Part shown: positions 1 to 25,225 of the stretch, in pieces
Layout of the letters: every line of letters begins with the position of its first letter
How positions within the stretch are numbered: the first letter of the stretch is position 1
Assembly: GCA_043813585.1 (NCBI GenBank)
Contig: JBDRKW010000020.1
Span: 265,034-329,033 of the forward strand
Reading direction: 5' to 3'
DNA: 64,000 nt
DNA from: Candidatus Kerfeldbacteria bacterium
GTDB lineage: Bacteria > Patescibacteriota > Patescibacteriia > UBA9570 > XYC2-FULL-38-9
The notes under the pieces: generated by a model
Databases searched by the model: none
The model's input: only the letters and a program-made list of their open reading frames with translations
Told to the model about the DNA's origin: nothing
Translations under genes and position numbers: made by a program

Positions 1-682
1 GCACGTCGCCCGCAACAATGCGCTGGGCCAACCCTTCGACAATGGCAGTCTTCCCCGTTCCGGGTTCGCCGATCAATACAGGATTGTTCTTCGTGCGCCG
101 GGACAGCACTTGCATGGCGCGGCGAATTTCGTCATCTCGGCCAATCACAGGATCGAGCTTTTCTTCTCGCGCCAACTGGGTCAGATTTTGCGCGTATTTT
201 TCCAACGCCTGGTATTTTGATTCCGGCTCCGGTGAATCAACCGTATGGCTGCCTCGAATCTCGGTAACAATTGCACCTGTACTTTTTGGGTCAAGCCCAA
301 CCTTCGCTAGTATAGCCTGCGCCGATGATTTCACATCAAACAACGCCATAAACAGATGCTCAACAGAAACATATTCATCCTTTAATTTCTTTGCTAATTT
401 ATCAGCCTGGAACAATACCGCATTCATCTCCTGGCTCACAAATACCTGGCCTGGCTGGTTCATGCGGGGCAGCGACCGTATCGAGCTCGCAACCAGCTTC
501 CCAACCTGCTCAATTTGCACATTCTGGCGCTCCAAAATCGGACGTACCATCGTCTCTTCCTGCTCAATTAACGCCATTAGAAGATGGGCCGGCACAATCT
601 GCTGCTGGCCTGAAGACATGGCAATGCCATGTGCATTTTGAAGCGCCTCCTGCGCTTTGCGCGTGAGTTTATTCAGATCCAT
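1..682 (-). CDS. clpB: ATP-dependent chaperone ClpB, N-terminal part only; runs off the window start
   Basis: Reverse-strand translation from the ATG at 682 reads [17 protein letters not shown], a Clp N-domain. It continues to the Walker A segment [21 protein letters not shown] at positions 1-90. The ORF track misses it because there is no in-window stop. The 18..641 + ORF is its antisense shadow. Confidence 0.8.
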
Positions 683-6768: not shown

Positions 6769-7662
6769 TTACCTCTTGAGCAACCGCTGCCCTACCAAAA
6801 GCAACGGACTTGCTATAAAAATTGATGAATAGGTTCCGGTAAGAATACCAAGTATCAGCGCCAGCACAAACCACTGGATGGATGCGCCGCCGAACAGATA
6901 CAGCGCAAGCAGGACAAGCAATGTGGAAAAGGATGTGTTTATCGAACGCACCAGCGTCGTATTGATGCTCTCGTTTATAATTTCCTTGAACGATTTCTTT
7001 GCGCGGTCTTTAAGCCCCTCTCTGATGCGGTCATACACGACAATCGTGTCATGAACCGAAAAACCGAGAATCGTCAGCAATGCAGTGACAAACAAAGTAT
7101 CGACCTGTACGTCCATAAAGTGCCCCAGTAGAATAAATGCCCCGACTACGAGGAGAATATCATGCGCAAGTGCCACAATGGCTCCGAGCCCAAACACCCA
7201 TGATGGAACCGGTCCGTTCGAGACCTTGCGAAAGGCGTACGAGATGTACCCGATAATCGCAAATAGGACGAGGAGAAGCGCTATGACAGCCTTTCTCTTG
7301 AGCTCTTCACCAAGCGTCGGGCCGATGCTGGTATAGTTCTCCTCTACGACATCCTGGTCTTTATACGCATCCAAAATCTGCTGGCGGGTCTTATTTTCAA
7401 TATGCTGCATTTTGAGGATCAGATTTGATTCACCTGCAGTCTGAATGCGCATATCACTCACACCAAGGTCAGTCACGGTGGTCGTAATATTTTCTACAGA
7501 CGGTCGCGATTCTATGTCGGGAAAACGCAACTCCATCGAGGTTCCGCCGGTAAAATCAATACCGAGGTTCAATCCCCATACAAACCACAATACTACGGTT
7601 GCCGCAATGCCAATGATAGAGAGGGTACTCCAATATTTCGTTGTATGGATAATCCTGTACAT
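6769..7662 (-). CDS. secF: Protein translocase subunit SecF
   Basis: Has a six-TM SecD/SecF fold. Starts MYRIIHTTKYWSTLSIIGIA and contains FTGGTSMELRF. It lies immediately downstream of secD. Confidence 0.9.
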   Translation of the reverse strand: MYRIIHTTKYWSTLSIIGIAATVVLWFVWGLNLGIDFTGGTSMELRFPDIESRPSVENITTTVTDLGVSDMRIQTAGESNLILKMQHIENKTRQQILDAYKDQDVVEENYTSIGPTLGEELKRKAVIALLLVLFAIIGYISYAFRKVSNGPVPSWVFGLGAIVALAHDILLVVGAFILLGHFMDVQVDTLFVTALLTILGFSVHDTIVVYDRIREGLKDRAKKSFKEIINESINTTLVRSINTSFSTLLVLLALYLFGGASIQWFVLALILGILTGTYSSIFIASPLLLVGQRLLKR

Positions 7663-9384: not shown

Positions 9385-10830
9385 TCAATAGTGGGTCCAC
9401 ACCAAAGTGCCAATATCAGCCCAATTATAAAGGAATTTTGCGTCATTATAGCGCATGTTGACGCAACCATGGCTCATTGGGTGGCCGAAATTATTATGCC
9501 AATAAGCAGAATGCAGATAGAACCGCATTCCATTGCCGGCTGTGGCAAAGGCAAGGTTATACGGCGTATTCGGCAGGTAGTAACCCGGGCCTGAATACAA
9601 ATGGTTTAAGATCTTGTTAAATACGGAAAATTCGCCGACAGGAGTTGGCGTGCCCGGCAAACCTGAAGAAATAAGGAAAACATTGCGCAGGTACCCGTCC
9701 TCCCACACATATTCGATCTGTTCAGTAAGGTTCACTTCAATGTAACGCGCCGGCCGCTCCGGATCCGCTTTGGGATGCTGGAGGCCCGGACTGATAATAA
9801 TCTCCGGTGTTTGATCTTTGTCTATAGATGCAACGGAAATATTCATTCCGCCGCGGAAACCTTCTTCAAATAAATATTGCGAATCCACGTCAAGCGGGGT
9901 CCCGTCGCCCCTGAAATATTTTACCTCTGCCTGCTGGTCCCCTGCCGGAACGACCGCGATCTCCTCTGTACCGTCGCCATCAGCGTCGATTGCTGCCATC
10001 TCAACGCCGCTCCGGAATTCGCGCGACCATGCCTGGAATTCCGCCAGCACGGGGTACTCGCGATTTGCGTCAATGCGGTAACCCTTAATCCAGGTTTGCC
10101 CCCCGTTATCAAAACCAACATACAGGTCGCTATGCTCGCCGCCGCCTGTGTTTATGGCCGCCGCAATCAAGCCATAGGTATCTGTTTCTGAAAACGGCGA
10201 AATATCCGGTGCCTGCATAACCCCGTTGCTGTCCAGAATGCGCACCAGAGGAAACAATCCGCCAACGGTTGCTGCAATAATTTCCTCTTCCGGGCCGTTT
10301 AATACATTTCCAACTGCAATGGCAGTGCCAGCCGGAAACTCCGGAAACGCTTCAAACGTGCCGGCTGTATCCGTATCTTCCTGTAGCATCCCATCCAGGA
10401 TCCATACTTTTGATGAAGCGCCGTCCGGAACTGAAACGATTATCTCGTCTTCACCGTCACCGTCCACGTCGCCGCATTCGACATCAAGATAGGTCCAGTC
10501 GTTTGTTCCGTGGAAAATTGCCGTTTGCGATATGAGTGAATGGTCGCCCCTGAACACTTTAATAATGCCCAGCGCATCCGGTCCGCCGGCCTGCGCAACA
10601 ACGATTTCGTTAATGCCATCGCCGCCGACATCACCGACCGCAACATCAACGCCGCCCTGATAGGACTCGTCGAATGCCAGCCATGAATCCTGAACCTCGC
10701 GCGTTTCAAAATCAATCACCTGGATCTCCGGCGCGCGGTTCGGCACGGCTGCGGCAGAAAATGGAACACACAGGAAGATAACCGGCACCCACCAGAACAC
10801 GGTTCGCAGATATGGTCGTTGTTCGGACAT
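9385..10830 (-). CDS. Secreted protein: FG-GAP/VCBS beta-propeller repeats fused to a C-terminal L,D-transpeptidase (YkuD) catalytic domain
   Basis: Has an N-terminal signal peptide. The repeat motifs include VGDVGGDGINEIVV, GDVDGDGEDEII and IDADGDGTEEIAV. The C-terminus FYLHSAYWHNNFGHPMSHGCVNM carries the His/Cys YkuD motif. Confidence 0.75.
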   Translation of the reverse strand: MSEQRPYLRTVFWWVPVIFLCVPFSAAAVPNRAPEIQVIDFETREVQDSWLAFDESYQGGVDVAVGDVGGDGINEIVVAQAGGPDALGIIKVFRGDHSLISQTAIFHGTNDWTYLDVECGDVDGDGEDEIIVSVPDGASSKVWILDGMLQEDTDTAGTFEAFPEFPAGTAIAVGNVLNGPEEEIIAATVGGLFPLVRILDSNGVMQAPDISPFSETDTYGLIAAAINTGGGEHSDLYVGFDNGGQTWIKGYRIDANREYPVLAEFQAWSREFRSGVEMAAIDADGDGTEEIAVVPAGDQQAEVKYFRGDGTPLDVDSQYLFEEGFRGGMNISVASIDKDQTPEIIISPGLQHPKADPERPARYIEVNLTEQIEYVWEDGYLRNVFLISSGLPGTPTPVGEFSVFNKILNHLYSGPGYYLPNTPYNLAFATAGNGMRFYLHSAYWHNNFGHPMSHGCVNMRYNDAKFLYNWADIGTLVWTHY

Positions 10831-10929
10831 ATTATAGTTATGCCGCTTATCCCTCCCGCACAGCTTTTCTCGCTCAACTTTGAGAATTTCGCTCCTAAAA
10901 GCTGCGCTCGCGGGATTCGCTACATTACG

Positions 10930-12387
10930 TTATTCGTGGACAATGACCTTGTCGCCGACATCGGCCCAGTCATAGATCCATTGGGAGTTTTCCAGATTGA
11001 CGTTGATGCAGCCGTGGCTCATGACATGTCCGAAGTTGTTGTGCCAATAGGCATAGTGAATATAGTGGTGTTGGCGAAACCGCAAATTGTTCACCACGCC
11101 AGGCAGGTCATAATTGTCCGGGTGGCCCGGTCCGTACGTCCATTCATAATCATGCACCGGCAATTTAGCGAGCACCTCGGTTTCCCCGGTCGGCGTCGCG
11201 TACCGCGCAACTCCGGTAGACACATAAAATTCTTTTTCTTTCACACCGTTCCGGTAGGCCCGTAAAATCTGTTCGGACAAATCCACATCAATATATTTGA
11301 AAATGTCCGTCCTGCCTTCCACGATTTTCTTTTGCGGTATAGTGACTATTTCAATCTTTGCGTCTGCATCCACATTTCCCGCTGTAACCGATACGCCGCC
11401 CCGAAAATCTTCCTCATACGCAAGAAAGCCAGGATTATAAAGCTTTCCCTTCTTCCCCTTAAAGATACGAATGTGCGGTCCGCCGGACTGCCGAGGCGCA
11501 GTAATAATTTCATCAATACCGTCCATATCAACATCCGCACTCGCTAGGTTTACGCCGCCTCTGAAGTTAGCGTCATACGCCAGGAACTCGCTGATGATCG
11601 TATCATTCGCATCTGCCTTGTACACCTTGATGCGCGGCTCGCCAAACGAATGGATGGCCGTCACAACCTCTTCATCCTTCCCGCCATCAACATTCGCGGT
11701 CGCAACTGAAACGCCGCCCCGGTCTGTATCGGCAAACGGAAAAAAATCGATACCAATATAATTTCCATATTTATCAAAGACACGAACATGGGGTCCGCCG
11801 CCGGGCCCGGCGCCGGTGATAATATCTGCGCTCCCGCGTCCGTCAACATTCCCAACTGCAACATTTACGCCGCCGCGGAAATGTTCATCATATGCAAAGA
11901 ACCCCGGGGTAAATTTCTCTTTCCCTTTCATGTTAAACACGCGCACCTGCGGTCCGCCGCCGCGCCCTGCTCCAACAACAATCTCATCTTTACCATCGCC
12001 ATTCAGGTCGCCTGCAGCAACATTGACGCCCACGCGGACATTATCGCCAAATGCCAAAAATTCGGAGACTTTCGCACCGCCAGGCGTGAATACGGTGACG
12101 GTCGGGCTTGATCCCGGCCCGGCGCCGACGATAACTTCATCTTTTCCGTCGCCGTTGAAGTCTCCGGTTGCGACCGTCCCCCCATTTTCGTTTGCCTCAT
12201 CAAACGCCAGAAACGATTCCTGCTGGCTGGCGACAGTTCCTTTGTTTTGCATTTCAAAAACGCGGACTTCCGGCTGGCGGTAATCCGCGGCGTGCACTGG
12301 CTGTGCGGTAACTGCAACAAACGCAGCAAGTGCGCAGATGCCACCGCCAACAAACAGCACAGGTCTAAAATTACGATGCCTTATCAT
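10930..12387 (-). CDS. Secreted FG-GAP-repeat plus L,D-transpeptidase protein; tandem paralogue of 9385..10830
   Basis: Has a signal peptide and about six FG-GAP repeats (GDFNGDGKDEVIVGAGPG, GDLNGDGKDEIVVGAGRGGGP, and others). The C-terminus reads HYAYWHNNFGHVMSHGCINV. Confidence 0.75.
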   Translation of the reverse strand: MIRHRNFRPVLFVGGGICALAAFVAVTAQPVHAADYRQPEVRVFEMQNKGTVASQQESFLAFDEANENGGTVATGDFNGDGKDEVIVGAGPGSSPTVTVFTPGGAKVSEFLAFGDNVRVGVNVAAGDLNGDGKDEIVVGAGRGGGPQVRVFNMKGKEKFTPGFFAYDEHFRGGVNVAVGNVDGRGSADIITGAGPGGGPHVRVFDKYGNYIGIDFFPFADTDRGGVSVATANVDGGKDEEVVTAIHSFGEPRIKVYKADANDTIISEFLAYDANFRGGVNLASADVDMDGIDEIITAPRQSGGPHIRIFKGKKGKLYNPGFLAYEEDFRGGVSVTAGNVDADAKIEIVTIPQKKIVEGRTDIFKYIDVDLSEQILRAYRNGVKEKEFYVSTGVARYATPTGETEVLAKLPVHDYEWTYGPGHPDNYDLPGVVNNLRFRQHHYIHYAYWHNNFGHVMSHGCINVNLENSQWIYDWADVGDKVIVHE

Positions 12388-12420: not shown

Positions 12421-12449
12421 ATTATAACATTTCCGGAACGCCCGGTCAA
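12421..12449 (-). promoter_or_regulatory. Sigma-70-type promoter (TTGACC, 17-bp spacer, TATAAT) upstream of the FG-GAP/Ldt gene 10930..12387
   Basis: On the minus strand the -35 TTGACC is at 12449..12444 and the -10 TATAAT at 12426..12421, with a 17-bp spacer. It sits in the 70-bp gap between the secA stop and the ATG of the downstream gene. Confidence 0.6.
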
Positions 12450-12457
12450 CAACCGAC

Positions 12458-15262
12458 CTACGCCCCGTGGCATTTCTTATACTTCTTCCCCGATCCGCAC
12501 GGACACGGATCGTTGCGTCCGATCTTTTTTCCGTCAACGCTCTTTTTTTGCGAAACGAATGGCTGCTTCTGCTCCTGTTTTTCCTGGCCCTGTTGCGGCC
12601 GCTGTTCCGTCATCTCTTTCTGTGGAGCAATGTAATTGACATGTTCGCCATGCATGCGCCGATCTGCCACCATTCTCGCGTCGCGCAACTTATAAATATT
12701 ATAAACAACCTGCTTCTGAATATTATCGAGTAACTCCTGGAACATCTGATAAGACTCGCGCTTATATTCAACCAGCGGATCACGCTGGCCATAGCCGCGC
12801 AGCCCGATGGAATCACGGAGGAATGACATCTGGTCCAAGTGCTCAATCCAAAGCGTATCGATGGCGCGGAGCGTAAATCCTTTTTCCACCCGGTGGCTCA
12901 GCTCTTCGTCTCCGATCTCGTCGATCATCTTCTTGTACGCCTGCTGCGCCTGCTCCTGGAAGTAATCAATCATCTTCGTCCGCGCCTCCGCATGCTCCAG
13001 CTTCCCGTCGCCCTTGTCCGCAAGCTGATTAACGGCAACCATGCACGCCTGTTCGGTCATCGGGAAAATCGTCTTCATGACCTCGCACACCTCTTTCATG
13101 TCCCATGCCTCGGATTCTTCCTGGTTGGTATGGAACGAAACAACATGCTCTATCTCGCCTTCAATCATCTCTGAAATAGTTGCGCGCAATTTTTCCGGCT
13201 CATCGTCAAGAATCGAATTCCTCCGGCGGTAGATCGTTTCACGATGTTTATTGATAACATCGTCATATTCCAGAAGGTGCTTGCGAATATCAAAGTTCCG
13301 CGACTCCACCTTGGATTGCGCCGATTCAATCGATCGCGATACCATCTTGTTCTCGATAGGCATGTCGTCCGGCACGCCGAGCTTTCCCATAAACGACTTC
13401 ATCCGGTCGGAACCGAAAATGCGCATGAGTTCGTCATCCATGGACACGAAGAACTGGCTTGTTCCGGGATCGCCCTGGCGTCCGGTTCGCCCACGCAGCT
13501 GGTTGTCGATGCGGCGGGCTTCATGGCGTTCTGTGCCGATAACGGCCAGGCCTCCCAATTCTATCACCTTACGCGCCTCCTCAATACTGGGCGGATTGCC
13601 GCCGAGAATGATGTCAACGCCGCGGCCGGCCATATTGGTTGCCACCGTCACTGCTCCGAGCCTGCCCGCTTGCGCAATGACCTCTGCCTCTCTCTCATGC
13701 TGTTTTGCGTTCAATACGTTATGGGGGATTCCGCTGGCTGTCAACATTTGACTGAACAGTTCATTCTGTTCAATGGATATCGTGCCGACCAGCACCGGCT
13801 GCCCCTTGTCATGCAGCTCTTTGATCTGGTTGATAACCGCCTGGAACTTGCCCTGCAGATTTTTGTACACGCGGTCGGAGTAATCCGTTCGCTGCAGATC
13901 CCGATTGGTGGGAATGACCACAACGTCCAACCCGTAAATCTTGAAAAATTCCTCTGCCTCTGTTTCCGCCGTACCGGTCATGCCGCTTAATTTTTTGTAC
14001 ATGCGGAAATAATTCTGAAGTGTAATGGTTGCAAGCGTCTGTGATTCCTGCTTGATTTTTAATCCTTCTTTTGCCTCAATTGCCTGGTGCAGCCCTTCTG
14101 AATATCGCCGTCCGTGCATCAGGCGGCCTGTAAACTCATCAACGATCAACACTTCGTCTTCCTTTACGACGTAATCCTTCTCGCGCGTGAACAAACAGCG
14201 CGCTTTCAATGCCTGTTCAATATGATGAACCGTGCGCAGTCCGCCGGCCGTATAGATATTTTCAACGTTCAGCGCCTTCTCTAGTTTTTCGATCCCCTGC
14301 TCAGAGAGCGACACGGACTTCATTTTCTCGTCCACGTTGAAATCCTCGTTTTCCGTAAGCGCAGAAACAAGCTGTGAAAACTGGTAGTATTGGTCAGTCG
14401 CCTCTGCTGCCGGCGCAGAAATAATAAGCGGCGTCCTTGCTTCGTCAATTAATATGGAATCGACTTCATCAATGATAGCGAAAAACAGCTGGCGCTGAAC
14501 CCGGTCTTCCGTATTCTGCACCATATTGTCGCGCAGATAGTCAAACCCGAATTCGTTGTTCGTGCCAAAGGTGATATCGGCCTGGTACGCTTCACGGCGC
14601 GACGCTTCGCGCAGGTGGTCCATGTCGGCGACGATGAGCGACTCATTTCCCCCGCCTTCTGTTGACGGCTCGCCCTTCTCTTCATCCTGACGTTCGTCCA
14701 CGTCTTTCGGCCGGCGAACTTTCTTGATATCCGCATCATAAATAAACGCTGCCTGGTTTTGGATGCACGAAACGGTCAAACCCAAAAAATAATAGACCTG
14801 GCCCATCCAGTCCGCATCGCGGCGGGCGAGGTAATCATTCACCGTCACCACATGAACGCCTTTTCCCTCAAGTGCATTCAGGTACGCGGCGGTTGTTGCC
14901 GCCAGCGTCTTGCCTTCACCAGTGCGCATCTCCGAAATTTTGCCCCGGTGCAGCGCAAAACCGCCCATGATTTGAACATCATAATGCCGCTGCCCCAGCG
15001 TTCTCCATGCCGCCTCCCTGACAACCGCAAACGCCTCATGCGCAATATCATCAGGTGAAGCGCCGTTTTTCAGCTTCTCCTTAAACTCTGCTGTTTTTGA
15101 AGACAACGACTCGTCAGAAAGAGATTTTACCGAATCCTCCAGAGCATTGACCTTTTCTACGTCAGCCTGGATTTCCTTCAATTTCTTCTTATTTTGATCG
15201 CCAAATAATTTTTCGACGAATTTAATTGTAGCCATACGTTCGTACTCTAGTGCTTCAGACAA
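12458..15262 (-). CDS. secA: Preprotein translocase ATPase SecA
   Basis: Is 934 aa and starts [12 protein letters not shown]. Contains the DEAD-like motor and a C-terminal zinc finger [14 protein letters not shown]. Confidence 0.95.
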
Positions 15263-16247
15263 AAACCGTCAACCGCGGTTCAAGCGCCAATTTTCGTATT
15301 TCCACATATTGCGGCGTAACACGCACTGACGCGAGCGAATCTTCATATATCCGGCCATTATTCATATCATCGCTGGTATACTCCGGATAGAAGCGAATCT
15401 CGTCATTTCTCCCGATTCTGGTATGAACTGCTGAACCTTTCTGACTAAGGTGGGTCATCTGGCCTTTGGTCAGGAAAAAACGCTCCGGCGCTCCATATGT
15501 GCCAATGCGATTGGGAAATGACAGCTCCAACTGCATGCCTTGTTGTACGCGATTCCGCGGTATAGTTGCTTTTGGATCAACGTCAAACCGTTCAACAGGC
15601 TCAGGATCCAAAATTAACATATCGTGCGAAAACAACAGAGGGTCAAACACGCGTACATGCGCCGGAATCCTGAAATGCTTGCCTTCATTCCGTATACTGA
15701 CATGAATCGGCTGGACTTCGCCAATCCATTCCGGCTCCCGTTCATACACGCGGTCCAGTTCTGACATCTTTTTCGCATACTGGAATTTCTCATTGAATTG
15801 CCGGACTGAATCAACTTCGCCTAACTGGAACATGTCCTGAAGACGCAACGAGCTCGAAGCTGAAAGCACAGCCGAATATAATTTATAGAGCACTGCTTCA
15901 TCAAACAGCGCAGCCAGCACGGCAAATTCCCTGTACGCCTGTGAAAGCGCTCCAACGTCACCGTCGCCGGTTTTAAACGCCGTTATTGTCTCTTCAGTTT
16001 GGGGGAAGACCCGAACGACATCGTTATACCCCATCCACTCGGCAACAACGCGAATAAAACGCGACCCGCCCTTTTCCATGCTTTGATTCAGCCACTGAAC
16101 AGTCTTATAGACAGACGGATCCGCTACAGTGCGAATGAACTCGTCCGCGCTTTCCGGATCGAGCGGTTCGGGAACGCCGCAGAGCCACGAAACAAGCCGG
16201 CACTTTGCCGCATCAAGAGAATCTGATTGTAATTGGCTGGTATGCAT
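15255..16247 (-). CDS. Hypothetical protein of 330 aa that overlaps the secA start by 8 bp
   Basis: A clean ORF with coding-like composition. I recognise no family. It sits between hpf and secA, so it is probably co-transcribed with them. Confidence 0.5.
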
Positions 16248-16256
16248 CCTTCCTCC

Positions 16257-16652
16257 TTAGTCGCCCTGCTCTTTCCAAAATGTCAGTATTGATTTTAAAT
16301 TACGCGTATGCTTTCGCGCCTTCTTGTTTTTTGTCTCGAATTTCTCCTTGTACCTCCGGACCTGACGCTCCATCTCATCGCGACATACATCAATCGACGC
16401 ATACAAATCCTCCTGCGTCTGCTCGCACCGCAATAACTGGTTCGGTACCGAAACATTCATGCGCGTGTTGAACACATCTCCTTTTTTGTGATGCGTATTG
16501 CGCGACACCTCCACGTCAATCTCTATGATATTGTTGTAATACTTTGTAAGGCTTGCGGTCTTTTCCATGACGTACGACTTGATCGCATCGGTAAGATCCA
16601 TGTTCTTACCTGAAATATTGGTTGGCATAGGAATACCATTAATAATTGGCAC
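16257..16652 (-). CDS. hpf: Ribosome hibernation-promoting factor / RaiA (YfiA) family protein; the start may be the internal Met at about 16628
   Basis: TNISGKNMDLTDAIKSYVMEKTASLTKYY aligns with the HPF N-terminus MNINITGHHVEITDALREYV, and a C-terminal basic tail follows. Among ribosome-associated inhibitors I cannot separate the short HPF from RaiA. Confidence 0.75.
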   Translation of the reverse strand: MPIINGIPMPTNISGKNMDLTDAIKSYVMEKTASLTKYYNNIIEIDVEVSRNTHHKKGDVFNTRMNVSVPNQLLRCEQTQEDLYASIDVCRDEMERQVRRYKEKFETKNKKARKHTRNLKSILTFWKEQGD

Positions 16653-16697
16653 TCCTATTGTACCATATCTTGGCTGTTCGTAGTATTGAAAAAACAG

Positions 16698-17585
16698 TTA
16701 AAAACCGATGTATTCGATCTCTTCCTGGAGCTGCACGCCTTTCTTATCCCGAACCTGCTGTTTAACGTAGGAAATAAGCATTACAACGTCTTTTGCTGTT
16801 GCGTTTCCCGTATTGACAATGAAATTGGCATGCTTTTCAGACACTTTTGCCCCGCCCATCTGCTTCCCTTTCAAATCCAGCTCGTCGATCAATTGGCCGG
16901 CGCTTTTATCAGTCTGCCCAACCGGGTTTGCAAACGCACACCCGGCGCTCAACGCACCGATATCCTGCGTTTCTGTACGCATAGAAGCCAGCTCTTTTGT
17001 TGCTACCCTGATTTCATCCTGATTCCCTTTCTGGAGCTGGAACAGCGCATCAACAATAACATGCGGCTCCTTCTTAAATATACTGTTGCGGTACGAAAAC
17101 TGGCAGTCATTAACCGAAAGAACCCGCTCTTCTCCGTTTTGGGTGATCGCAGCAGCCTCAATCAATACATCTTTTATCTCATGGCCGCGCGCACCAAGAT
17201 TGGCCCAGACAGCTCCGCCCACGGTTGCCGGAACGCCAATGGCAAATTCCAAGCCGGTCAGCTCCCTCTGCATGCATTCTGTAATTAATTTTCCCATCTT
17301 CACGCCGGCTTCTGCGCGTACCTGCATTAGATTCTCATCGAATTCGATTGCATTCAATTCCAATTTTATCGCCAATCCTTTGAACCCATCATCCGAAATC
17401 AAAACATCAGAACCGCCGCCCAGGAGAAACCAATCAATATCATTTGCCCGGGCCTGGGCAAGCGCTTCCTTCAGTTCTGCACGAGTGTTCACAACAGCAA
17501 AATACTGCGCCGGACCGCCAATTTTAAATGTCGTGTACGGAGCGAGCTCTATCTGTTCCTGCATATTGGGCAATGAAAGCGCCAT
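16698..17585 (-). CDS. murB: UDP-N-acetylenolpyruvoylglucosamine reductase MurB
   Basis: Starts with the FAD-binding segment APYTTFKIGGPAQYF and contains LLGGGSDVL and SAGCAF. Confidence 0.9.
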   Translation of the reverse strand: MALSLPNMQEQIELAPYTTFKIGGPAQYFAVVNTRAELKEALAQARANDIDWFLLGGGSDVLISDDGFKGLAIKLELNAIEFDENLMQVRAEAGVKMGKLITECMQRELTGLEFAIGVPATVGGAVWANLGARGHEIKDVLIEAAAITQNGEERVLSVNDCQFSYRNSIFKKEPHVIVDALFQLQKGNQDEIRVATKELASMRTETQDIGALSAGCAFANPVGQTDKSAGQLIDELDLKGKQMGGAKVSEKHANFIVNTGNATAKDVVMLISYVKQQVRDKKGVQLQEEIEYIGF

Positions 17586-17587
17586 AT

Positions 17588-18955
17588 CTAATCTGTGAGT
17601 GATTGAGCGAGCAGATAAATATCGCCTGCTCCCATAATAAGAAGAATGTCCTTCTTTACTATAATATCATCAATTATTTCGCGTGTCGCTTCGGCGTTTG
17701 GCGAAAACGCAGCAAACATCCCCCGCTGCTCCAGCGCATCGCACAACTGTTTTGAGCTGATCTCAAGGCGTTCCTGTTCGCGTCCTGCGACATCGAATAT
17801 TTCCTGCACCACTGCATAATCCGCCCGGGCCAGTGCATCGGCAAACTGATCAAAGAACTTGATTGTGCGCGACCGCTGATGCGGTTGGAACACCACAACA
17901 ACCCTCCGCCCGGGATACAGCTGCCGAGCTGCGTCAATCGTCGACGCTACAGCAGTCGGGTGATGGGCATAATCCGAAACAACCGTGGCGCGCCTGTACT
18001 CGCCGAGTATCTCAAACCGCCGCCAAACGCCGGTGAATCCGGAAAGCGCCTGCCTGGTTGTATCTTCAGACAATTCCAAATGCTTGCCAAGCGCAATGCT
18101 CGGCAATGCATTCAATATATTAAACGTACCCGGGACGCGAAGTTCATACTGAGCACCGCCGGCTGTAAATGCCTGAACGCCGTCTCCGGCCTGAATTTGT
18201 TCTGCTTTAATATCAGCATCCTGTTCAATGCCGAATGTGATTCGCTTCGCCGGACTGGCCAGCGCGGCCGCCTCTTTATCATCGGCATTGGCAATAAGCA
18301 GGCCGCCCTCCGGAAGCTTCCCAACATATGACTGGAACGCGCTCCTGATATGATCCATATCCCTGTAGTAATCCAGGTGCTCTTCCTCGATATTGGTCAG
18401 CACAATCACGGTCGGAGAAAGTTCCAACATATGCTCCTGATGTTCGCATGCTTCAACAATAATCAGGTCGCGGCTGCCGGACCGCGCATTGCTTCCAAAT
18501 TCTTTTACTATGCTTCCCACAATAACCGTCGGATCCAGTCCTCCTGCAAGCAGCGTCTGCGCGAGCATGGCGGTGGTCGTCGTCTTCCCGTGGGTACCGG
18601 ACACGGCGATGCGCGTTGCAAACTGCATCATGTATTCGCCCAGTGCCTGGAAATAATTCATGGATGGAATGCCGAGCTCTGCCGCCTTCATCCGTTCGGG
18701 ATGGTCTTCCGGGACTGCGCCGGAATAAATAAAATAATCCATATTGTCTGTAATCCCGCTGCCATCCTGAATAAAATTAACTGCTATCCCAGCTTGCTTA
18801 AGCATTTCCGTGACCTTTGATTCGGCAATTTCAGATCCGCTGACTGCTGTTCCGCCGGCATGAAGAAGCTGCGCCAACGCAGAGGTACCGATTCCTCCGA
18901 TCCCTGAAAAATAGATTGTTTTAGCGTCCCGGAGCTTCATGGATAATAGATGCAA
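17588..18955 (-). CDS. murC: UDP-N-acetylmuramate--L-alanine ligase MurC; the probable start is MKLRD at 18940
   Basis: Contains IYFSGIGGIGTSALA and the Mur ligase P-loop VSGTHGKTTTTAML. Confidence 0.9.
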   Translation of the reverse strand: MHLLSMKLRDAKTIYFSGIGGIGTSALAQLLHAGGTAVSGSEIAESKVTEMLKQAGIAVNFIQDGSGITDNMDYFIYSGAVPEDHPERMKAAELGIPSMNYFQALGEYMMQFATRIAVSGTHGKTTTTAMLAQTLLAGGLDPTVIVGSIVKEFGSNARSGSRDLIIVEACEHQEHMLELSPTVIVLTNIEEEHLDYYRDMDHIRSAFQSYVGKLPEGGLLIANADDKEAAALASPAKRITFGIEQDADIKAEQIQAGDGVQAFTAGGAQYELRVPGTFNILNALPSIALGKHLELSEDTTRQALSGFTGVWRRFEILGEYRRATVVSDYAHHPTAVASTIDAARQLYPGRRVVVVFQPHQRSRTIKFFDQFADALARADYAVVQEIFDVAGREQERLEISSKQLCDALEQRGMFAAFSPNAEATREIIDDIIVKKDILLIMGAGDIYLLAQSLTD

Positions 18956-19961
18956 ATTGCTGAACAGCGTCCTGTTTATAGAACTCTTTAATGCGAGCCC
19001 GCAGTGTACGCATTTTTTCCGGATTATTCAAGAGCGCGTTAATCTCCCGTACTAAAGATTCGGGCGTAAGCTCTTTTTGCGAAAGCACCACGGCAGCGCT
19101 ATGTTGTTGCAGCAACACAGCGTTCGCTTCCTGATGCGTACCCGGCATCGGAATAATAATTGCCGGCTTCCCCAGCGCGGCCAGCTCTGAAATGGTGCCC
19201 AATCCGGCACGCGCTACGACCACGTCGGCTTTCGCAAACGCTTCTTTCATCTCTTCATGCAAATATTCATATCGATGGTAGCGGTCATGCTCAAACGGTT
19301 CGCCATCCCTGCCCGACCCGGTCATATGGATTACGTTCATGGTGTCGCACAATGCCGGCGATACCAGTGCGTTGATCGCCTTGGCTCCTGTTCCTCCCCC
19401 AAAAATGAATAGGGTCGGAACGGAACGATCAACTGCAAGGGTATCCGTCACGGGCGTAAGGTCGCGAACTGGGTTTCCAACCCAGCGCGCCTTCCCTTTT
19501 GCAAAATGCCTTAACGACTCTTCAAATGCCACGGTAATGGCTGACGCGCACGGAGACATCAATCTATTCGCAAGGCCGGGCTGGATGTCCTGCTGATGGA
19601 TAACGCTCGGGATGCGCTTGAACCATCCGGCCCATACGACGGGGACGGAAACAAAGCCGCCGGCAGATACAATAACGTCCGGCGCAATGCGCTTCACCAA
19701 CCGGCATGCGCGGATCAAAGAAATGATCATCTGAAATGGCACCGCGAAATGTCGAAACGAGAAATAGCGCCTCAATTTTGGCGCAGGCAACGCATAAAAC
19801 GGAATGGACAGCGCTTCCACTGAAATGCGCTCCGGACCGTTAGGCGTGCCGATAAACTGAATAGCATCTCCGCGCCGACGAAGCTCCGGAACAACCGCAA
19901 GCAGCGGGCTCACAGGCCCCATCGTTCCTCCGCCGGTTAACAGTATTTTCATATTGAGCAA
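18921..19961 (-). CDS. murG: Lipid II synthase MurG (undecaprenyl-PP-MurNAc-pentapeptide GlcNAc transferase)
   Basis: Has the N-terminal glycine-rich loop MKILLTGGGTMGPVSP and a GT28 C-domain. Its position between ftsW and murC is the conserved one. Confidence 0.85.
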   Translation of the reverse strand: MLNMKILLTGGGTMGPVSPLLAVVPELRRRGDAIQFIGTPNGPERISVEALSIPFYALPAPKLRRYFSFRHFAVPFQMIISLIRACRLVKRIAPDVIVSAGGFVSVPVVWAGWFKRIPSVIHQQDIQPGLANRLMSPCASAITVAFEESLRHFAKGKARWVGNPVRDLTPVTDTLAVDRSVPTLFIFGGGTGAKAINALVSPALCDTMNVIHMTGSGRDGEPFEHDRYHRYEYLHEEMKEAFAKADVVVARAGLGTISELAALGKPAIIIPMPGTHQEANAVLLQQHSAAVVLSQKELTPESLVREINALLNNPEKMRTLRARIKEFYKQDAVQQFASIIHEAPGR

Positions 19962-21230
19962 TTAGGATTTCTGACGCTGCGCCGTATGCGACGAACCGCG
20001 CGATATGTTCACTAAAATTCCTGCCGCAAACAATAGCATGATAAGCGAAGAGCTGCCATAACTGATGAACGGCAGCGTAATGCCGGTAAGCGGCAACAGG
20101 GACAGCATTGCTCCGATATTGACGAACGCCTGGAAGCCGACCCATGTCGCAATGCCGACCGCCAACAGCTTGCCAAACTGGTCCGGCGCATTCCTGGCGA
20201 CCTTCAGCGCCTGCAATGTAAAAATTAAGAACAGAGCCACAACACCCAGCGCAAATATGAAACCGAGTTCCTCGGCAATAATCGCAAAAATCGAATCGGT
20301 CGCAACTTCCGGCAGATAGTTGAACTTCTGCCGTGAATGTCCGAGACCCAGCCCGAAAAAGCCGCCCGAACCGATTGCCAGCAACGCCTGGTTCACATGG
20401 TAGCCGATCCCCTGCGGATCAATCTCAGGATTCAGGAACACCGTCAGACGGGCGGCGCGATACGGCGCAATCTTAATAAGCCCGGCAAGGGCAATAATGC
20501 CGCCCAAAAAAATGAGGCCCAGATGTTTCCATGGCGCTCCTGCGATAAAATACATAGTGACGGAAATGACTGCGATTACAATCGTCGTTCCGAGGTCTTT
20601 CTGCGCCACTGCGATCATCAGCACGAGTGCGCCCAGCATGACCAGAAACGACACAAATCCATACGAAAGATCCTCAACATCCTTACCCCTCTTCTCGAGC
20701 CATGCCGCCAAATAGATGAGGAAGGTCAACTTCACAACTTCGGACGGCTGAAAGTAAAAACCGCCGAGATTGATCCACCGTTTCGCGCCAAGAAGCTCCA
20801 CGCCAATGCCGGGAAGGAATACCGCAAACAACAGCAGCACCGTTACTGCGGCAATCGGGAAAGCATATTTTCGCCAGTAGCGATAATCTACCTTGGCCAT
20901 AATATAGAAACCCACGCCACCCAGCAAAACGCCATAAAACAATTGGTGCTTCAGGTAATGATAACTGTCGCCAAAGGCCTGGTAGGATAATACAGAACTG
21001 GCAGACGACAGCATGATCAACCCGAACAATATAATAACGCCCAGCAGTATGATAAGCGTCATATCCGGCTCTCCGAGTGAGTTCTTCAGTAACGACCGTG
21101 CCCCGGAACGCTTTCTGACATTCACTCTGCTTTCCGGAACGGCTGTGGTAATCTTCCTGCTGATACGCGAAAACGAGCGTTTTGCACGCCCGCGCTTTCT
21201 CCGCTCTTCCGGTGTATAGGACCTCGGCAT
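19962..21230 (-). CDS. ftsW: SEDS-family peptidoglycan glycosyltransferase FtsW/RodA; the N-terminal 56 basic residues may be an over-extension, with an alternative start at 21062
   Basis: A polytopic protein containing the SEDS segments NLGGFYFQPSE and AIGSGGFFGLGLG. The order ftsW-murG-murC-murB matches the conserved division/cell-wall gene-cluster order. Confidence 0.85.
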   Translation of the reverse strand: MPRSYTPEERRKRGRAKRSFSRISRKITTAVPESRVNVRKRSGARSLLKNSLGEPDMTLIILLGVIILFGLIMLSSASSVLSYQAFGDSYHYLKHQLFYGVLLGGVGFYIMAKVDYRYWRKYAFPIAAVTVLLLFAVFLPGIGVELLGAKRWINLGGFYFQPSEVVKLTFLIYLAAWLEKRGKDVEDLSYGFVSFLVMLGALVLMIAVAQKDLGTTIVIAVISVTMYFIAGAPWKHLGLIFLGGIIALAGLIKIAPYRAARLTVFLNPEIDPQGIGYHVNQALLAIGSGGFFGLGLGHSRQKFNYLPEVATDSIFAIIAEELGFIFALGVVALFLIFTLQALKVARNAPDQFGKLLAVGIATWVGFQAFVNIGAMLSLLPLTGITLPFISYGSSSLIMLLFAAGILVNISRGSSHTAQRQKS

Positions 21231-21287
21231 ACGCAGATTATACCAGAAAATGACAGGTTTTTCATCCTGAACGCCATCAATAAAAAA

Positions 21288-21310
21288 GCAGGGTCAGCGC
21301 CCTGCTTTTT
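21288..21310. terminator. Bidirectional intrinsic terminator: stem GCAGGG/CCCTGC with a 6-nt loop, flanked by an A-run and a T-run
   Basis: The plus strand reads aaaaaaGCAGGGtcagcgCCCTGCttttt. On the minus strand it ends the ~410-nt noncoding transcript that lies upstream of ftsW. Confidence 0.7.
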
Positions 21311-21717
21311 CAGTATCTTCCTACATGGTGTGAAAGGACAAGATCTGGGCTGATCTGCCAAATTGCGCGCCCCAATCAACGGCCAGACCTGAACAAAGTT
21401 CAGGCGAGGAGAGAGATTTAGGCCGAAGTTGAGTACAATTTTGCAATCCAGAACGTTTGCCCTTTCATGACCAGGCAGGAAGATCGCGTCATTCTCTCCT
21501 TCTTATCCGGGTAGTTATACCCAGAAAGGTAGTGCCATCGATTATGCTGAGGAGGAGTCACATAATGGAGGCACCACCTTTCCAGGGCTAATCAAACAGA
21601 ACCTCGGGTTTGCTGATTAGCAGCGTTTCTGGGTTAACGTTCCTCCCAGAGGTGTGATGTCTCTAGAACATGCGTTGGAGGAATTGCATATTCGAGACAT
21701 CACACCTTTGAGGTGAA
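21311..21717 (-). ncRNA. Candidate structured noncoding RNA of about 410 nt, class unknown, driven by a near-consensus promoter and ended by the 21288..21310 terminator
   Basis: There is a ~500-bp gap between lepA and ftsW in an otherwise tightly packed region, and it contains no ORF of 60 aa or more. The promoter is TTGACA, 16-bp spacer, TATAAT. A 14-bp perfect-stem hairpin occupies 21650..21707. A 12-bp imperfect hairpin spans 21521..21591. The unit ends in an intrinsic terminator. Confidence 0.55.
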
Positions 21718-21723
21718 CAAGCC

Positions 21724-21751
21724 ATTATACATGAAACAGTATCTTTGTCAA
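21724..21751 (-). promoter_or_regulatory. Near-consensus sigma-70 promoter (TTGACA, 16-bp spacer, TATAAT preceded by TG) reading into the lepA-ftsW intergenic region
   Basis: On the minus strand the -35 TTGACA is at 21751..21746 and the -10 TATAAT at 21729..21724. This places the TSS near 21717. Confidence 0.6.
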
Positions 21752-21809
21752 GGCTCTATTTGGGGATGAAAAAACAGCATCTATGACTAATCTTAGCCAA
21801 ATTATGCTG

Positions 21810-23609
21810 TTATCGCTTTAAAATAGCCAAGAATGCCTCTTGCGGAATATCCACCTTGCCCATTGATTTCATCTTTTTCTTTCCTTTTTTCTGTTTTTCA
21901 AGGAGTTTGCGCTTTCGTGACACATCCCCGCCATAGAGTTTTGCCGTAACATCCTTGCGCATTGGCGGAATCCGCTCGCCTGCAATAACCTTACTGCCAA
22001 TTGCCGCCTGTATCTTCACTTCAAACATCTGGCGCGGCAACAGATCCTTTAACGCCTTCACCACACTGCGGCCGGCCCGCTCAGCTTCATCCCGGTACAC
22101 CATTGATGCCAATGCACCAATCGACTCTTCAGCAACTAGTATATCCATCCGGACGATATTCGCATTCTGATACCCGTTGAACTCATAGTTGAGTGACCCG
22201 TAACCGGACGTAACATTTTTCAATTTATCATAAAAATCCACCACCAAGCCGGCAAGCGGCACTACGTAGTGAATGATCACGCGCGTTTCATCTATATATT
22301 CCAATTCATTTTTTGCGGGAGTCGCGCGCTTTTCCGAAAGCAGCTGCATCACTGCGCCAATATAAGTGGTAGGCGTCACGATGTCTGCGGTCATAACCGG
22401 CTCTTCAATATGTTCGATAGTGGACGGATCCGGCAGATCCAGAGGGGAAGATACAATCTGGTTCTTTCCGTCGTTCGTGAAGACCCGGTACGCCACCGAC
22501 GGCGTTGTGACGATCAGGTCCAGGTCAAACTCCCTCCGCAGCCGTTCACTGATAATATCAAGATGCAGCATCCCAAGAAATCCGCACCTGAATCCAAAAC
22601 CAAGCGCAACCGAGTTTTCCGGCTCATACACCAGCGCGGCATCATTGAGCTTCAAACGGCCCACGGCTTCGCGCAGCTCAGGATATCTTGACGTATCTTT
22701 TGCGTAGATGCCGGCGTACACCATCGGCCTTACTTCCTTGTATCCCGGTAACGGATCCTCTGCCTGATGTGCGCGCAACGTCACCGTATCGCCAACGCGC
22801 GCATCGCTGACCCCTTTAAATCCCGTTACGATATAACCAATCTCTCCTGCTCCGAGGGAATCCTTCTTTTGGAGCGATGGGTGAAACGTCCCGACTTCCA
22901 ATGCTTCTGAATGCGTCCCCTGTCCCATCAAATAAATGCTGTCCCCGGTTTTTATTGACCCGTCTTCAACGCGGACATATGCAATCACGCCGCGGTAATC
23001 ATCAAATACAGAATCGAAAATAAGCGCGCGTGTCCATTCCGGCGTTGTCTCCACCGGCGGCGGAACCTGGGCAACAATCGCCTGTAAGACCTGTTCGACA
23101 TTTTCACCTGTCTTGGCGGATATTTTAATGATATCATCGTCCGAACATCCAATCAGCTTTTGTATCTCAGCGCTCACGCGCGGCACATCGGCAACCGGAA
23201 GGTCGATTTTATTGATCACGGGAATAATGGTGAGATCCTGCTCCAGCGCAAGGTACAGATTCGCAAGCGTTTGAGCCTGTATGCCCTGGGAAGCATCGAC
23301 AACCAAAAGCGCTCCCTCGCAGGCCTGAAGCGACCGGGATACTTCATATGAAAAATCAACATGCCCGGGGGTATCGATCAAATTTATTATGTACTCCCTA
23401 CCGTCCACCGTATACCGCATGCGCGCGGGCTGCAGCTTAATCGTAATGCCGCGTTCGCGCTCAAGATCCATCTGATCAAGAACCTGTTCTTTCATCTCGC
23501 GCTTGTCGACAGTGTGCGTCAATTCCAACAGCCGGTCCGCCAGCGTGGACTTTCCGTGGTCAATATGAGCGAGTATGCAGAAATTTCGTATCTGATCCAT
23601 AGCGTGCAT
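21810..23609 (-). CDS. lepA: Elongation factor 4 (LepA)
   Basis: Has the GTPase motifs AHIDHGKST and DTPGHVDF, and the LepA-specific C-terminal domain. Confidence 0.95.
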   Translation of the reverse strand: MHAMDQIRNFCILAHIDHGKSTLADRLLELTHTVDKREMKEQVLDQMDLERERGITIKLQPARMRYTVDGREYIINLIDTPGHVDFSYEVSRSLQACEGALLVVDASQGIQAQTLANLYLALEQDLTIIPVINKIDLPVADVPRVSAEIQKLIGCSDDDIIKISAKTGENVEQVLQAIVAQVPPPVETTPEWTRALIFDSVFDDYRGVIAYVRVEDGSIKTGDSIYLMGQGTHSEALEVGTFHPSLQKKDSLGAGEIGYIVTGFKGVSDARVGDTVTLRAHQAEDPLPGYKEVRPMVYAGIYAKDTSRYPELREAVGRLKLNDAALVYEPENSVALGFGFRCGFLGMLHLDIISERLRREFDLDLIVTTPSVAYRVFTNDGKNQIVSSPLDLPDPSTIEHIEEPVMTADIVTPTTYIGAVMQLLSEKRATPAKNELEYIDETRVIIHYVVPLAGLVVDFYDKLKNVTSGYGSLNYEFNGYQNANIVRMDILVAEESIGALASMVYRDEAERAGRSVVKALKDLLPRQMFEVKIQAAIGSKVIAGERIPPMRKDVTAKLYGGDVSRKRKLLEKQKKGKKKMKSMGKVDIPQEAFLAILKR

Positions 23610-23641
23610 AGGGTACCAAACAAGCCGGTAAAATCAAGTGT

Positions 23642-25225
23642 TCACCCGGTAATCTGCCTCCACATGCTTATGGCTTTATCCCGAATGGTATACGCCTCCT
23701 TGAAACGGAACTGTGCGGCGATCAGGATGTATGTTACGCCACCTGCAAGAATCGCTGCCAAACTCTGAATAAGTATTCCTTTAAATGTCTGCATATCCAC
23801 CATCGGGGCAACAATATATTTCGCTCCTTGGATGACCAGGCCCATTCCGAGTGAAGCGATAATAATCTTCCAGGTTGAAGAGATAAGCAGTTCGTCATCC
23901 AGGTCGCCATGGCGCACGCGAAGAGTGGCAAGCAATGCGACCATTTGGAACAGTGCCGCTATGGAAAACGCGAGCGCCAGTCCGGTTACTCCCATGGAAC
24001 CGGCCAGCGAAAGCGCGAGCACGATATTTAACGCCATTGCAATTGAACTTATAACGACCGGGGTCTTCGTGTCCTGCTTTGCGAAGAACGAGCGTGCCAG
24101 AAGCGGTATGGCCGCCTGCGCAAACATGGAGAGTGCAAACATTCCAAGAGTTTGCGCAGTTAAAATCGTATCAGTCCAGTCAAACTCGCCGGAACCATAG
24201 ACGAGACGAACGATCTGGGCACGAAGCAGCAGCGTCGCGATAGAAATCGGAATAATAAAAAATAAAATCCGGCGAAAACTTTCAGAAAACAGCTTTTTAA
24301 ACGCGTTGATATCTTTTTTTGCAAACGCCTCGGAAAAAACCGGAAATGCAGCAAGCGCAAGCGACACGCCAAAAATATTAATGGGAAAGTGCTGCAAGTT
24401 ATCCGCAAATTGCCAAATTGAACGCGTCCCTTCGTCCATCGTAGATGCAATCGCGAATATGATTATGATATTCAATTGCGTCAGTCCCAGGGCAAACGCC
24501 CGCGGCGGCATCAGTTTAATGATTTGGCGTACTCCCGCATTCCTCAGCTGCATAATCGGTGCGTAGCGGAAACCGGCACGCATAGCACCAGGTAGCAAAA
24601 TGAGAAAATGAAGTGCCGCTCCAAGAACAACACCAAGCGCCAGGCCAATGTCTCCAATCATCGGCTTCAATACCAGGATGCCTATAATGATTCCGACATT
24701 GTACAAAATCGGCGCCATGGCATACACGAAAAATTTCTTGTACGCGTGCAGAACTCCCGATAACACATTACTCACTCCCAGAAGAACCAAAGAGGCAAGC
24801 ATGAGCCTCGTAAAGAGAACCGTCGTCTCCTGTTGCGCCGCAGTATCGCCAAACGCGATCAACGAAACTATCCACGGGGCAAAAATAAAGCAGAGTACGG
24901 CAAAACCGATGAGGGACAAAAGCGCAAGGTTCAATACCGAATTAGCGATCTTCATCGCTTCCTGTTCGCCCTTGTTCTTTTTAAACTCGATAAACACCGG
25001 CACAAACGCCGCTGACAGCAGACCGAGAACAAAAATATTAAAGATAAAATCCGGAATCTTGAACGCAGTAAAATAACTGTCGAGCAGTTCCCCAGGGCCG
25101 ATTGTTGCTGATAATAAACGGTCGCGTAACAGGCCCAAAATACGACTTAACACTGAAGCAGAGCCGATGATGATGGCTCCGCCCGCTATTGTCTTTTGAA
25201 GTTTTCCGATAAATCGCTCTGGCAT
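23642..25225 (-). CDS. murJ: Lipid II flippase MurJ (MviN)
   Basis: Is 527 aa with 14 TM segments. Contains LSRILGLLRDRLLSATIG and FFIIPISIATLL, typical of the MurJ/MOP family. Confidence 0.85.
   Translation of the reverse strand: MPERFIGKLQKTIAGGAIIIGSASVLSRILGLLRDRLLSATIGPGELLDSYFTAFKIPDFIFNIFVLGLLSAAFVPVFIEFKKNKGEQEAMKIANSVLNLALLSLIGFAVLCFIFAPWIVSLIAFGDTAAQQETTVLFTRLMLASLVLLGVSNVLSGVLHAYKKFFVYAMAPILYNVGIIIGILVLKPMIGDIGLALGVVLGAALHFLILLPGAMRAGFRYAPIMQLRNAGVRQIIKLMPPRAFALGLTQLNIIIIFAIASTMDEGTRSIWQFADNLQHFPINIFGVSLALAAFPVFSEAFAKKDINAFKKLFSESFRRILFFIIPISIATLLLRAQIVRLVYGSGEFDWTDTILTAQTLGMFALSMFAQAAIPLLARSFFAKQDTKTPVVISSIAMALNIVLALSLAGSMGVTGLALAFSIAALFQMVALLATLRVRHGDLDDELLISSTWKIIIASLGMGLVIQGAKYIVAPMVDMQTFKGILIQSLAAILAGGVTYILIAAQFRFKEAYTIRDKAISMWRQITG

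Follow-up and report, generated by a model that had tools for sequence, protein, structure and literature searches.

Tandem genes for putative L,D-transpeptidases fused to six-bladed FG-GAP propellers in an envelope-gene neighbourhood of Candidatus Kerfeldbacteria

What would a cell wall enzyme do with a beta-propeller made of FG-GAP repeats? The question is raised by two adjacent genes, here called Ldt-up and Ldt-down, in a 64-kb stretch of DNA (positions 1-64000, hereafter the window) from Candidatus Kerfeldbacteria, members of the Patescibacteria or candidate phyla radiation (CPR). The interval 9385-12387 consists of exactly two open reading frames (ORFs), both on the minus strand, and each product is a 100% match to an NCBI entry, on a 351-kb contig, titled 'MAG: L,D-transpeptidase family protein [Candidatus Kerfeldbacteria bacterium]' (MAG, metagenome-assembled genome). 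The elements of the pair are the following.

10930..12387, minus strand: Ldt-up gene, 485 aa, signal peptide, six-bladed FG-GAP propeller and YkuD domain
12289..12387, minus strand: predicted Ldt-up signal peptide, aa 1-33, ending ...VHA before AD
11317..12279, minus strand: Ldt-up propeller, aa 37-357
10933..11298, minus strand: Ldt-up YkuD domain, aa 364-485, with the codons of His444 at 11056-11058 and Cys460 at 11008-11010
9385..10830, minus strand: Ldt-down gene, 481 aa, same architecture as Ldt-up
10747-10830, minus strand: predicted Ldt-down signal peptide, aa 1-28, ending AAA before VP
9775-10737, minus strand: Ldt-down propeller, aa 32-352
9388-9747, minus strand: Ldt-down YkuD domain, aa 362-481, with the codons of His440 at 9511-9513 and Cys456 at 9463-9465

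Both proteins are fusions of an FG-GAP propeller with an L,D-transpeptidase (LDT) domain, and this observation is confirmed far beyond chance. The C-terminal YkuD domain (PF03734) scored 78.0 bits in Ldt-up (E 1.5e-21) and 77.0 bits in Ldt-down (E 3e-21) against a Pfam cutoff of 23.4, with near full-length coverage of the profile in both. The N-terminal two thirds of the proteins are occupied by FG-GAP-type matches, with 58.0 and 29.6 bits for FG-GAP (PF01839, cutoff 22.1) and 60.0 and 41.2 bits for FG-GAP_3 (PF13517, cutoff 26.9) in Ldt-up and Ldt-down, respectively. The two sequences align collinearly from end to end with 33% identity (E 2e-80), and a tblastn search of the window finds these two copies and no third. 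A preliminary description of this DNA had proposed the domain composition and the tandem paralogy, and both are borne out; its statement that the copies share only the repeat and motif consensus is wrong in view of the whole-length alignment. AlphaFold2 models of both proteins, built on the family alignments, reached a pLDDT (predicted local distance difference test) of 94.1 and a pTM (predicted template modelling score) of 0.86 for Ldt-up, and of 92.0 and 0.88 for Ldt-down. Each model consists of an N-terminal hydrophobic helix, the beta-propeller, a linker of about 10 residues and the YkuD domain. Because the pTM is so high for a two-domain chain, the packing of the propeller against the YkuD domain is predicted to be defined and fixed.

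We put the probability at roughly 60% that Ldt-up and Ldt-down are Sec-exported, wall-resident peptidoglycan LDTs whose propeller is a targeting or retention module. The pair, which probably has a promoter of its own and shares a transcript with secDF, would yield enzymes that are exported by Sec, lose their signal peptides by cleavage and act in the wall of the producer itself. There the catalytic Cys (Cys460 or Cys456) would attack the L-centre(3)-D-Ala(4) bond of a tetrapeptide stem to form an acyl-enzyme, and the acyl group would pass to a neighbouring stem, giving a 3-3 cross-link. The propeller would replace the LysM, PG_binding or Ig-like accessory domains of other LDTs and bind to something in the wall, a glycan or glycopolymer most likely and perhaps via Ca2+ loops; its docking would position the rigidly attached catalytic domain. 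The two copies would carry out the same chemistry with diverged propellers, probably at different sites or on different ligands.

The canonical YkuD motif, known from the structural literature on YkuD and Ldtfm, is H-x(14-17)-[ST]HGC-h-N. The active-site string of Ldt-up is HYAYWHNNFGHVMSHGCIN, with H444...S457-H458-G459-C460-I-N462, and that of Ldt-down is HSAYWHNNFGHPMSHGCVN, with H440...S453-H454-G455-C456-V-N458. Both fit H-x15-SHGC-h-N, and the H, S, H, G, C and N residues are invariant in the 56- and 46-sequence family alignments; the catalytic Cys, on which the preliminary description had made its finding depend, is thus intact in both copies (Cys460 and Cys456). A family profile matched solved LDT structures, in order, at E 1.5e-13 (LdtMt3), 6e-13 (the M. 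smegmatis LDT), 9e-12 (E. faecium Ldtfm), 1.5e-11 (LdtMt1) and 3e-10 (LdtMt2), and the alignment runs through the flap segment. Similarity to the solved LDT structures is also present at the level of the fold, where Foldseek agrees, at an identity of ~20-27% over the catalytic domain. By sequence comparison, the catalytic domain is closest to the proven peptidoglycan cross-linking LDTs of mycobacteria and enterococci.

Other YkuD chemistries have to be weighed against these matches. The domain might covalently anchor surface proteins to peptidoglycan stems, in the way that LdtA-C of E. coli attach Lpp, the propeller then recruiting the protein substrate. The name 'ErfK/SrfK' given to homologues is a generic COG label, and the NCBIfam equivalogs of the E. 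coli enzymes lie far below their cutoffs in Ldt-down (TransPepLdtE (LdtE) 14.8 against 480; PRK10260 16.8 against 583) and have no match in Ldt-up. Moreover, the nearest solved relatives are stem-to-stem cross-linkers, and no candidate substrate gene is conserved beside the ldt genes in related loci, so that we hold anchoring to be unlikely. We rate as equally unlikely an L,D-carboxypeptidase or endopeptidase that trims stems or cleaves cross-links in the manner of Csd6, LdtF/DpaA or ElsL. These enzymes have the YkuD fold and the Cys/His motif in common with the pair, and Csd6 is reported to be a YkuD enzyme acting as a dedicated carboxypeptidase (PMC4599014). A weak NCBIfam match to the ElsL carboxypeptidase (NF040925, E 0.0044) was seen for Ldt-down and none for Ldt-up, but its score of 16.8 is far below the cutoff of 270, and the best profile and fold matches of the pair are transpeptidases, flap or lid segment included.

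Export of the two proteins is suggested by their N-termini, which both combine a basic n-region with a hydrophobic core (a hydrophobic helix at residues 8-26 in the Ldt-up model) and have likely cleavage sites at VHA-AD (Ldt-up) and AAA-VP (Ldt-down). An A-x-A directly before the first propeller strand is the consensus of the family alignment. From these features, they look like cleavable Sec signal peptides. A lipoprotein signal was considered for both and rejected by sequence inspection; the Cys present in each signal region does not lie within a lipobox ([LVI][ASTVI][GAS]C).

The propeller is built in both proteins from six mutually alignable repeats of ~52 aa, with a consensus of roughly F-x-A-Y-D-x-x-F-R-G-G-V-x-V-A-x-G-D-V-D-G-D-G-x-D-E-I-V-x-G-A-G-x-G-G-G-P-x-V-R-V-F. 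In Ldt-up the blades start near aa 62, 114, 167, 219, 272 and 325, and blade 6 is completed by the N-terminal strands (residues 40-60) in a 2+2 "velcro" closure. The propeller had been called integrin-like, and this did not hold up: repeat alignment, models and fold comparison all give a closed six-bladed structure, where integrin-alpha-like propellers have seven blades. The best rigid-body fits are to six-bladed propellers, with integrin alpha chains ranking lower and some of them fitting with a poor root-mean-square deviation. In the profile search integrin alpha-V was matched at E 3.6e-10, and the repeats remain FG-GAP in sequence. The Ca-loop motif, D-x-[DN]-x-D-G-x-x-[DE], is complete in three blades of Ldt-up (1, 2 and 5) and in two of Ldt-down (2 and 5), whose repeats are more degenerate overall (two Pfam stretches versus four in Ldt-up).

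Repeats of this kind are not confined to LDTs. Many longer proteins contain repeats 40-59% identical to the Ldt-up blades, and ten of these were scanned for domains. In two of them the FG-GAP repeats are accompanied by DUF11 surface repeats, in one each by a subtilase (S8), by a eukaryotic-type carbonic anhydrase together with SdrD_B/He_PIG, and by CarboxypepD_reg repeats (the representatives of fusions with other domains, all from outside the window, are P0211, P0216, P0224, P0226 and P0228), and four have FG-GAP-type repeats only. The tenth, P0220, has the reverse order with an N-terminal YkuD domain, which could be genuine or could result from tandem genes having been merged during gene calling. 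The propeller thus appears to be a reusable extracellular module of the lineage, and its presence on unrelated exoenzymes is as expected of a retention or targeting domain, rather than of one specific to stem-peptide chemistry. Foldseek also matched the propeller to the GlcNAc (N-acetylglucosamine)-binding PAL lectin 5mb4 (E 1.9e-8), to UmbA4 with teichuronic acid (9oee, E 1.9e-7 over 344 columns) and to the rhamnogalacturonan lyase YesW. UmbA4 ends in a lectin domain that is a six-bladed propeller, has Ca-loop-type repeats and recognises a glycopolymer of the cell wall (PMC13274773). We take these matches as analogies for glycan binding at the level of the fold, not as family membership.

Does Ldt-down remain an enzyme at all? 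Its degenerate FG-GAP repeats and the longer branches of its clade would be in keeping with a decaying or non-catalytic paralogue. Against this, the reading frame is unbroken, mean conservation of the YkuD domain is 64%, the AlphaFold2 model has the high pLDDT given above, and orthologues of Ldt-down persist beside the Up copy on at least 16 contigs; because the catalytic H, S, H, G, C and N do not vary across its orthologues, a pseudoenzyme is largely excluded. In these cases (at least 16), Ldt-down orthologues (38-65% identity) and Ldt-up orthologues (54-73%) occupy the same contigs. In a neighbour-joining tree, which is distance-based and midpoint-rooted and was used for the separation of clades, not for dating the duplication, the Down group forms a separate long-branched clade, and the tandem pairs of other lineages fall in two further clades. 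Tandem or near-tandem pairs were found in about 10 of 80 related loci. Since the two orthologous groups share contigs and form separate clades, the duplication or duplications must be old and retained, as the preliminary description had supposed. Divergence since then is uneven: mean identity to the same-contig orthologues is 63% for the propeller and 70% for the YkuD domain of Ldt-up, and 46% and 64% for those of Ldt-down. This asymmetry in the propeller, with the YkuD domain maintained, fits a divergence of the targeting module without proving subfunctionalisation, which is plausible from the sequences.

The architecture itself turned out to be abundant. The best 120 matches for each query are all full-length (~460-500 aa), and nearly all have FG-GAP-type and YkuD domains in their precomputed Pfam annotation. 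Among 50%-identity representatives, 3,883 clusters were matched at E <= 1e-30, with full-length fusions making up about half of the best 150 cluster matches, and one conserved peptide pattern gave at least 598 confirmed stretches in species-representative genomes. The matches are labelled Kerfeld-, Uhr-, Falkow-, Buchanan-, Nomura-, Parcubacteria or Patescibacteria group, and every match that could be placed belongs to the Patescibacteria, a statement that covers the strong matches. The apparent occurrences elsewhere were rejected. The loci labelled Methylomirabilis (L019) and Kapaibacterium (L069) are syntenic with Parcubacteria-/Uhrbacteria-type loci, their neighbouring genes being 50-80% identical, and by this comparison are mislabelled or mis-binned CPR contigs; the many 'uncultured Gammaproteobacteria' titles of TPA (third-party annotation) MAGs look like placeholder names, and one of these MAGs is a 1.0-Mb chromosome. 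The architecture is not unusual within its lineage. It is plentiful in numerous CPR candidate phyla and automatically annotated as 'L,D-transpeptidase family protein', which comes close to the situation (common and already annotated across many phyla) in which the preliminary description was prepared to give up its claim, while all placeable loci remain within the Patescibacteria. The fusion is thus the standard, auto-annotated form of LDT in a large part of this group. No published description of an FG-GAP propeller-LDT fusion, or of LDT chemistry in CPR, was found in the searchable literature. New is the LDT with a six-bladed FG-GAP propeller as accessory domain; the kind of enzyme is already known.

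The surroundings of the pair bear on where its products act. The relevant elements are listed here.

12421..12449, minus strand: sigma-70-type promoter-like site, TTGACC, 17-nt spacer, extended -10 TG and TATAAT, 11/12 match
10831..10929, minus strand: spacer of 99 bp between Ldt-up and Ldt-down
7665-9347, minus strand: secD, with an inserted PpiC peptidyl-prolyl isomerase (PPIase) domain, starting 37 bp downstream of Ldt-down
6769-7662, minus strand: secF
12458..25225, minus strand: upstream envelope-biogenesis block (Pfam), with murJ, lepA, ftsW, murG, murC, murB, a 330-aa ORF and secA

The promoter reported upstream of Ldt-up was recovered as a candidate with TTGACC, a 17-nt spacer, TATAAT and an upstream TG, and falls within the 70 bp that separate the stop of secA from the start of Ldt-up. 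Over the whole window, five of the six sites matching at >=11/12 lie in the ~8% of non-coding DNA, so the Ldt-up site is unlikely to be a chance match and sites of this strength are probably real promoters in this genome. The 99-bp spacer between the ldt genes has no scored promoter or terminator. A separate promoter for Ldt-down was considered and rejected, as the TATAAT there abuts the ATG without a usable -35 and would initiate inside the ORF. In the gaps between Ldt-up, Ldt-down and secD (99 and 37 bp), neither a terminator-like site nor a good promoter was seen, and the ldt-ldt-secDF genes are therefore likely to form one transcription unit.

All neighbouring genes are on the minus strand, and the order of transcription is murJ, lepA, ftsW, murG, murC, murB, the 330-aa ORF, secA, Ldt-up, Ldt-down, secD, secF and a Sigma70_r4/HARE-HTH gene. 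Gene order was counted over the 80 related loci. The order ldt-secD-secF is kept in about 21 of them, secA lies upstream of ldt in 9, and a nucleotidyl-transferase gene (NTP_transferase family) lies near ldt in 14. In six Falkow-/Buchananbacteria-type loci, rsmH/mraW, which is the first gene of dcw (division and cell wall) clusters, is found 1-5 kb downstream of the ldt gene. This recurring envelope-biogenesis neighbourhood favours a role of the putative enzymes in the producer's own cell wall.

Patescibacteria are often episymbionts, and a propeller that binds a glycan or protein on the surface of a host or partner could direct the LDT to remodel the partner's wall or to staple the two walls together. 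The fast evolution of the Down propeller (46% versus 63% identity to orthologues, as above) would suit such a role, and UmbA4-type six-bladed lectins do recognise foreign cell-wall polymers. On the other side, the Up propeller is well conserved, and members of the near-ubiquitous family are found among housekeeping genes of the envelope (mur/ftsW, secA, secDF, rsmH), not in variable or island-like surroundings. Binding to a host or partner-cell surface, as first suggested for this locus, was pure conjecture; the gene context points to the producer's own envelope instead, and we regard a host-directed function as very unlikely. A broader and scarcely less doubtful idea is that the FG-GAP propeller is a Patescibacteria-wide, Ca-dependent lectin tethering LDTs, subtilases and carbonic anhydrases to a surface glycopolymer, in the role that LysM, SLH or choline-binding modules have elsewhere, with the fast-evolving Ldt-down retargeted to a host-wall polymer. 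If so, the retargeted Ldt-down could make covalent changes to the host's wall where the cells attach, or join the walls of symbiont and host there.

Returning to peptidoglycan cross-linking in the producer's own wall, four points weigh against this reading. The YkuD fold also serves L,D-carboxypeptidase, endopeptidase and protein-anchoring reactions, which sequence cannot separate. The Ca-loop motifs are complete in only three of the six Ldt-up blades and two of the six Ldt-down blades and degenerate elsewhere. Common descent within a single clade may account for much of the conserved gene order. Finally, the searchable literature holds no biochemical data for members of the family and no muropeptide data for the lineage.

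Several features of the surrounding genes are recorded here in their own right. The insert in SecD is a PpiC/parvulin-type PPIase (PF13616, E 1.4e-24) at aa 145-235, between the SecD_1st and P1-head subdomains. In tblastn searches SecD aligned at full length in many related loci and as two split pieces in others (L012, L030 and L015); the split alignments indicate that the insert may be clade-specific. Such a translocon-attached foldase (SecD-PpiC) would be of interest in itself. The 330-aa ORF (15255-16247, minus strand), which lies between murB and secA and overlaps secA by 8 bp, has no Pfam match; at this position a dcw-type cluster might be expected to have an FtsQ/DivIB-like gene. Downstream of secF, the conserved segment 1400-6185 (minus strand) encodes a 389-aa Sigma70_r4 and HARE-HTH protein, a 563-aa protein without Pfam match and a TrwB/VirD4/HerA-like ATPase. 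Homologues of the Sigma70_r4/HARE-HTH protein follow secF in about 13 related loci, and in 12 a ~490-aa protein without Pfam match comes after it (for example at 11870-13342 in L013). The only perfect 12/12 sigma-70 consensus of the window, TTGACA-16-TATAAT at 21751..21724 (minus strand), lies ~490 bp upstream of ftsW in a 579-bp gap (21231-21809) that has no Rfam match; it may belong to a long leader, to a small ORF or to an RNA not yet annotated.

In the window as a whole, a single one of the ~49 ORFs counted as genes lies on the plus strand (18..641), and all the others are on the minus strand. The GC skew is negative in every 2-kb bin of 1-64000 (-0.04 to -0.17), and the gene layout is one of extreme co-orientation on one replichore. 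The tRNA and Rfam scans found no tRNA gene and no Rfam family in the 64 kb. A ComEC-like gene is present as two ORFs overlapping by ~196 nt (43616-45906, minus strand), with DUF4131 and Competence domains at 44470-45906 and Lactamase_B at 43616-44665; a frameshift, an internal start and a true division of the gene are the candidate causes. The minus strand also encodes three large proteins that probably belong to the cell surface, namely a DUF4012 protein of 817 aa (25240-27693), a DUF11/NPCBM_assoc protein of 639 aa (30698-32617) and a NosD-type beta-helix protein of 892 aa (54978-57656), and Pfam finds an FG-GAP propeller in none of the three.

Patescibacteria make up a large share of bacterial diversity and the chemistry of their walls is almost unknown. 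The conservation and frequent duplication of these genes beside mur/ftsW and sec genes suggest that 3-3 cross-linking may be a regular part of CPR wall assembly, which, if true, would bear on the sensitivity of these ultra-small cells to beta-lactams and carbapenems and on their cultivation. Similarly, the ligand of the propeller would show how monoderm CPR cells keep secreted enzymes near or direct them to a site. In practical terms the value is modest: the pair is a clear target for enzymology and glycan-binding work, not a new principle.

Compared with known systems, the pair has the YkuD fold, motif and flap in common with LdtMt1, LdtMt2 and LdtMt3, the M. smegmatis LDT (4xvo), Ldtfm (1zat) and B. 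subtilis YkuD (1y7m), and the cross-linking LDTs also have an N-terminal signal or anchor for export, as is predicted here. Whereas those enzymes carry Ig-like (BIg) or LysM domains, the pair carries a six-bladed FG-GAP propeller of 320 aa, unlike the accessory domain of any LDT with a solved structure. The E. coli enzymes ErfK/LdtA, YbiS/LdtB, YcfS/LdtC and LdtD/E also have the YkuD domain, and it is their 'ErfK/SrfK' name that the Joint Genome Institute (JGI) annotation puts on homologues of the pair; however, their equivalog scores are far below cutoff, their accessory domains differ and the pair has no Lpp-type substrate context. For the propeller, integrin alpha chains (PF01839/PF13517) belong to the same repeat family and have the D-x-N-G-D-G-x-D-E Ca-loop-like hairpin, but they have seven blades, whereas the propellers here have six with a 2+2-strand velcro, are bacterial and are fused to an enzyme. 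The six-bladed, extracellular NHL-type sensor domain of M. tuberculosis PknD (1rwi), like NHL domains in general, belongs to a different repeat family without the FG-GAP signature, and it is attached to a kinase, not to a wall enzyme. UmbA4 of the Streptomyces umbrella toxins (9oee) is likewise six-bladed, secreted by a monoderm and made of degenerate repeats with Ca-loop-like sequences, and binds teichuronic acid; at 16% identity to the propeller of the pair no shared family is shown, and UmbA4 belongs to a toxin particle that targets other species.

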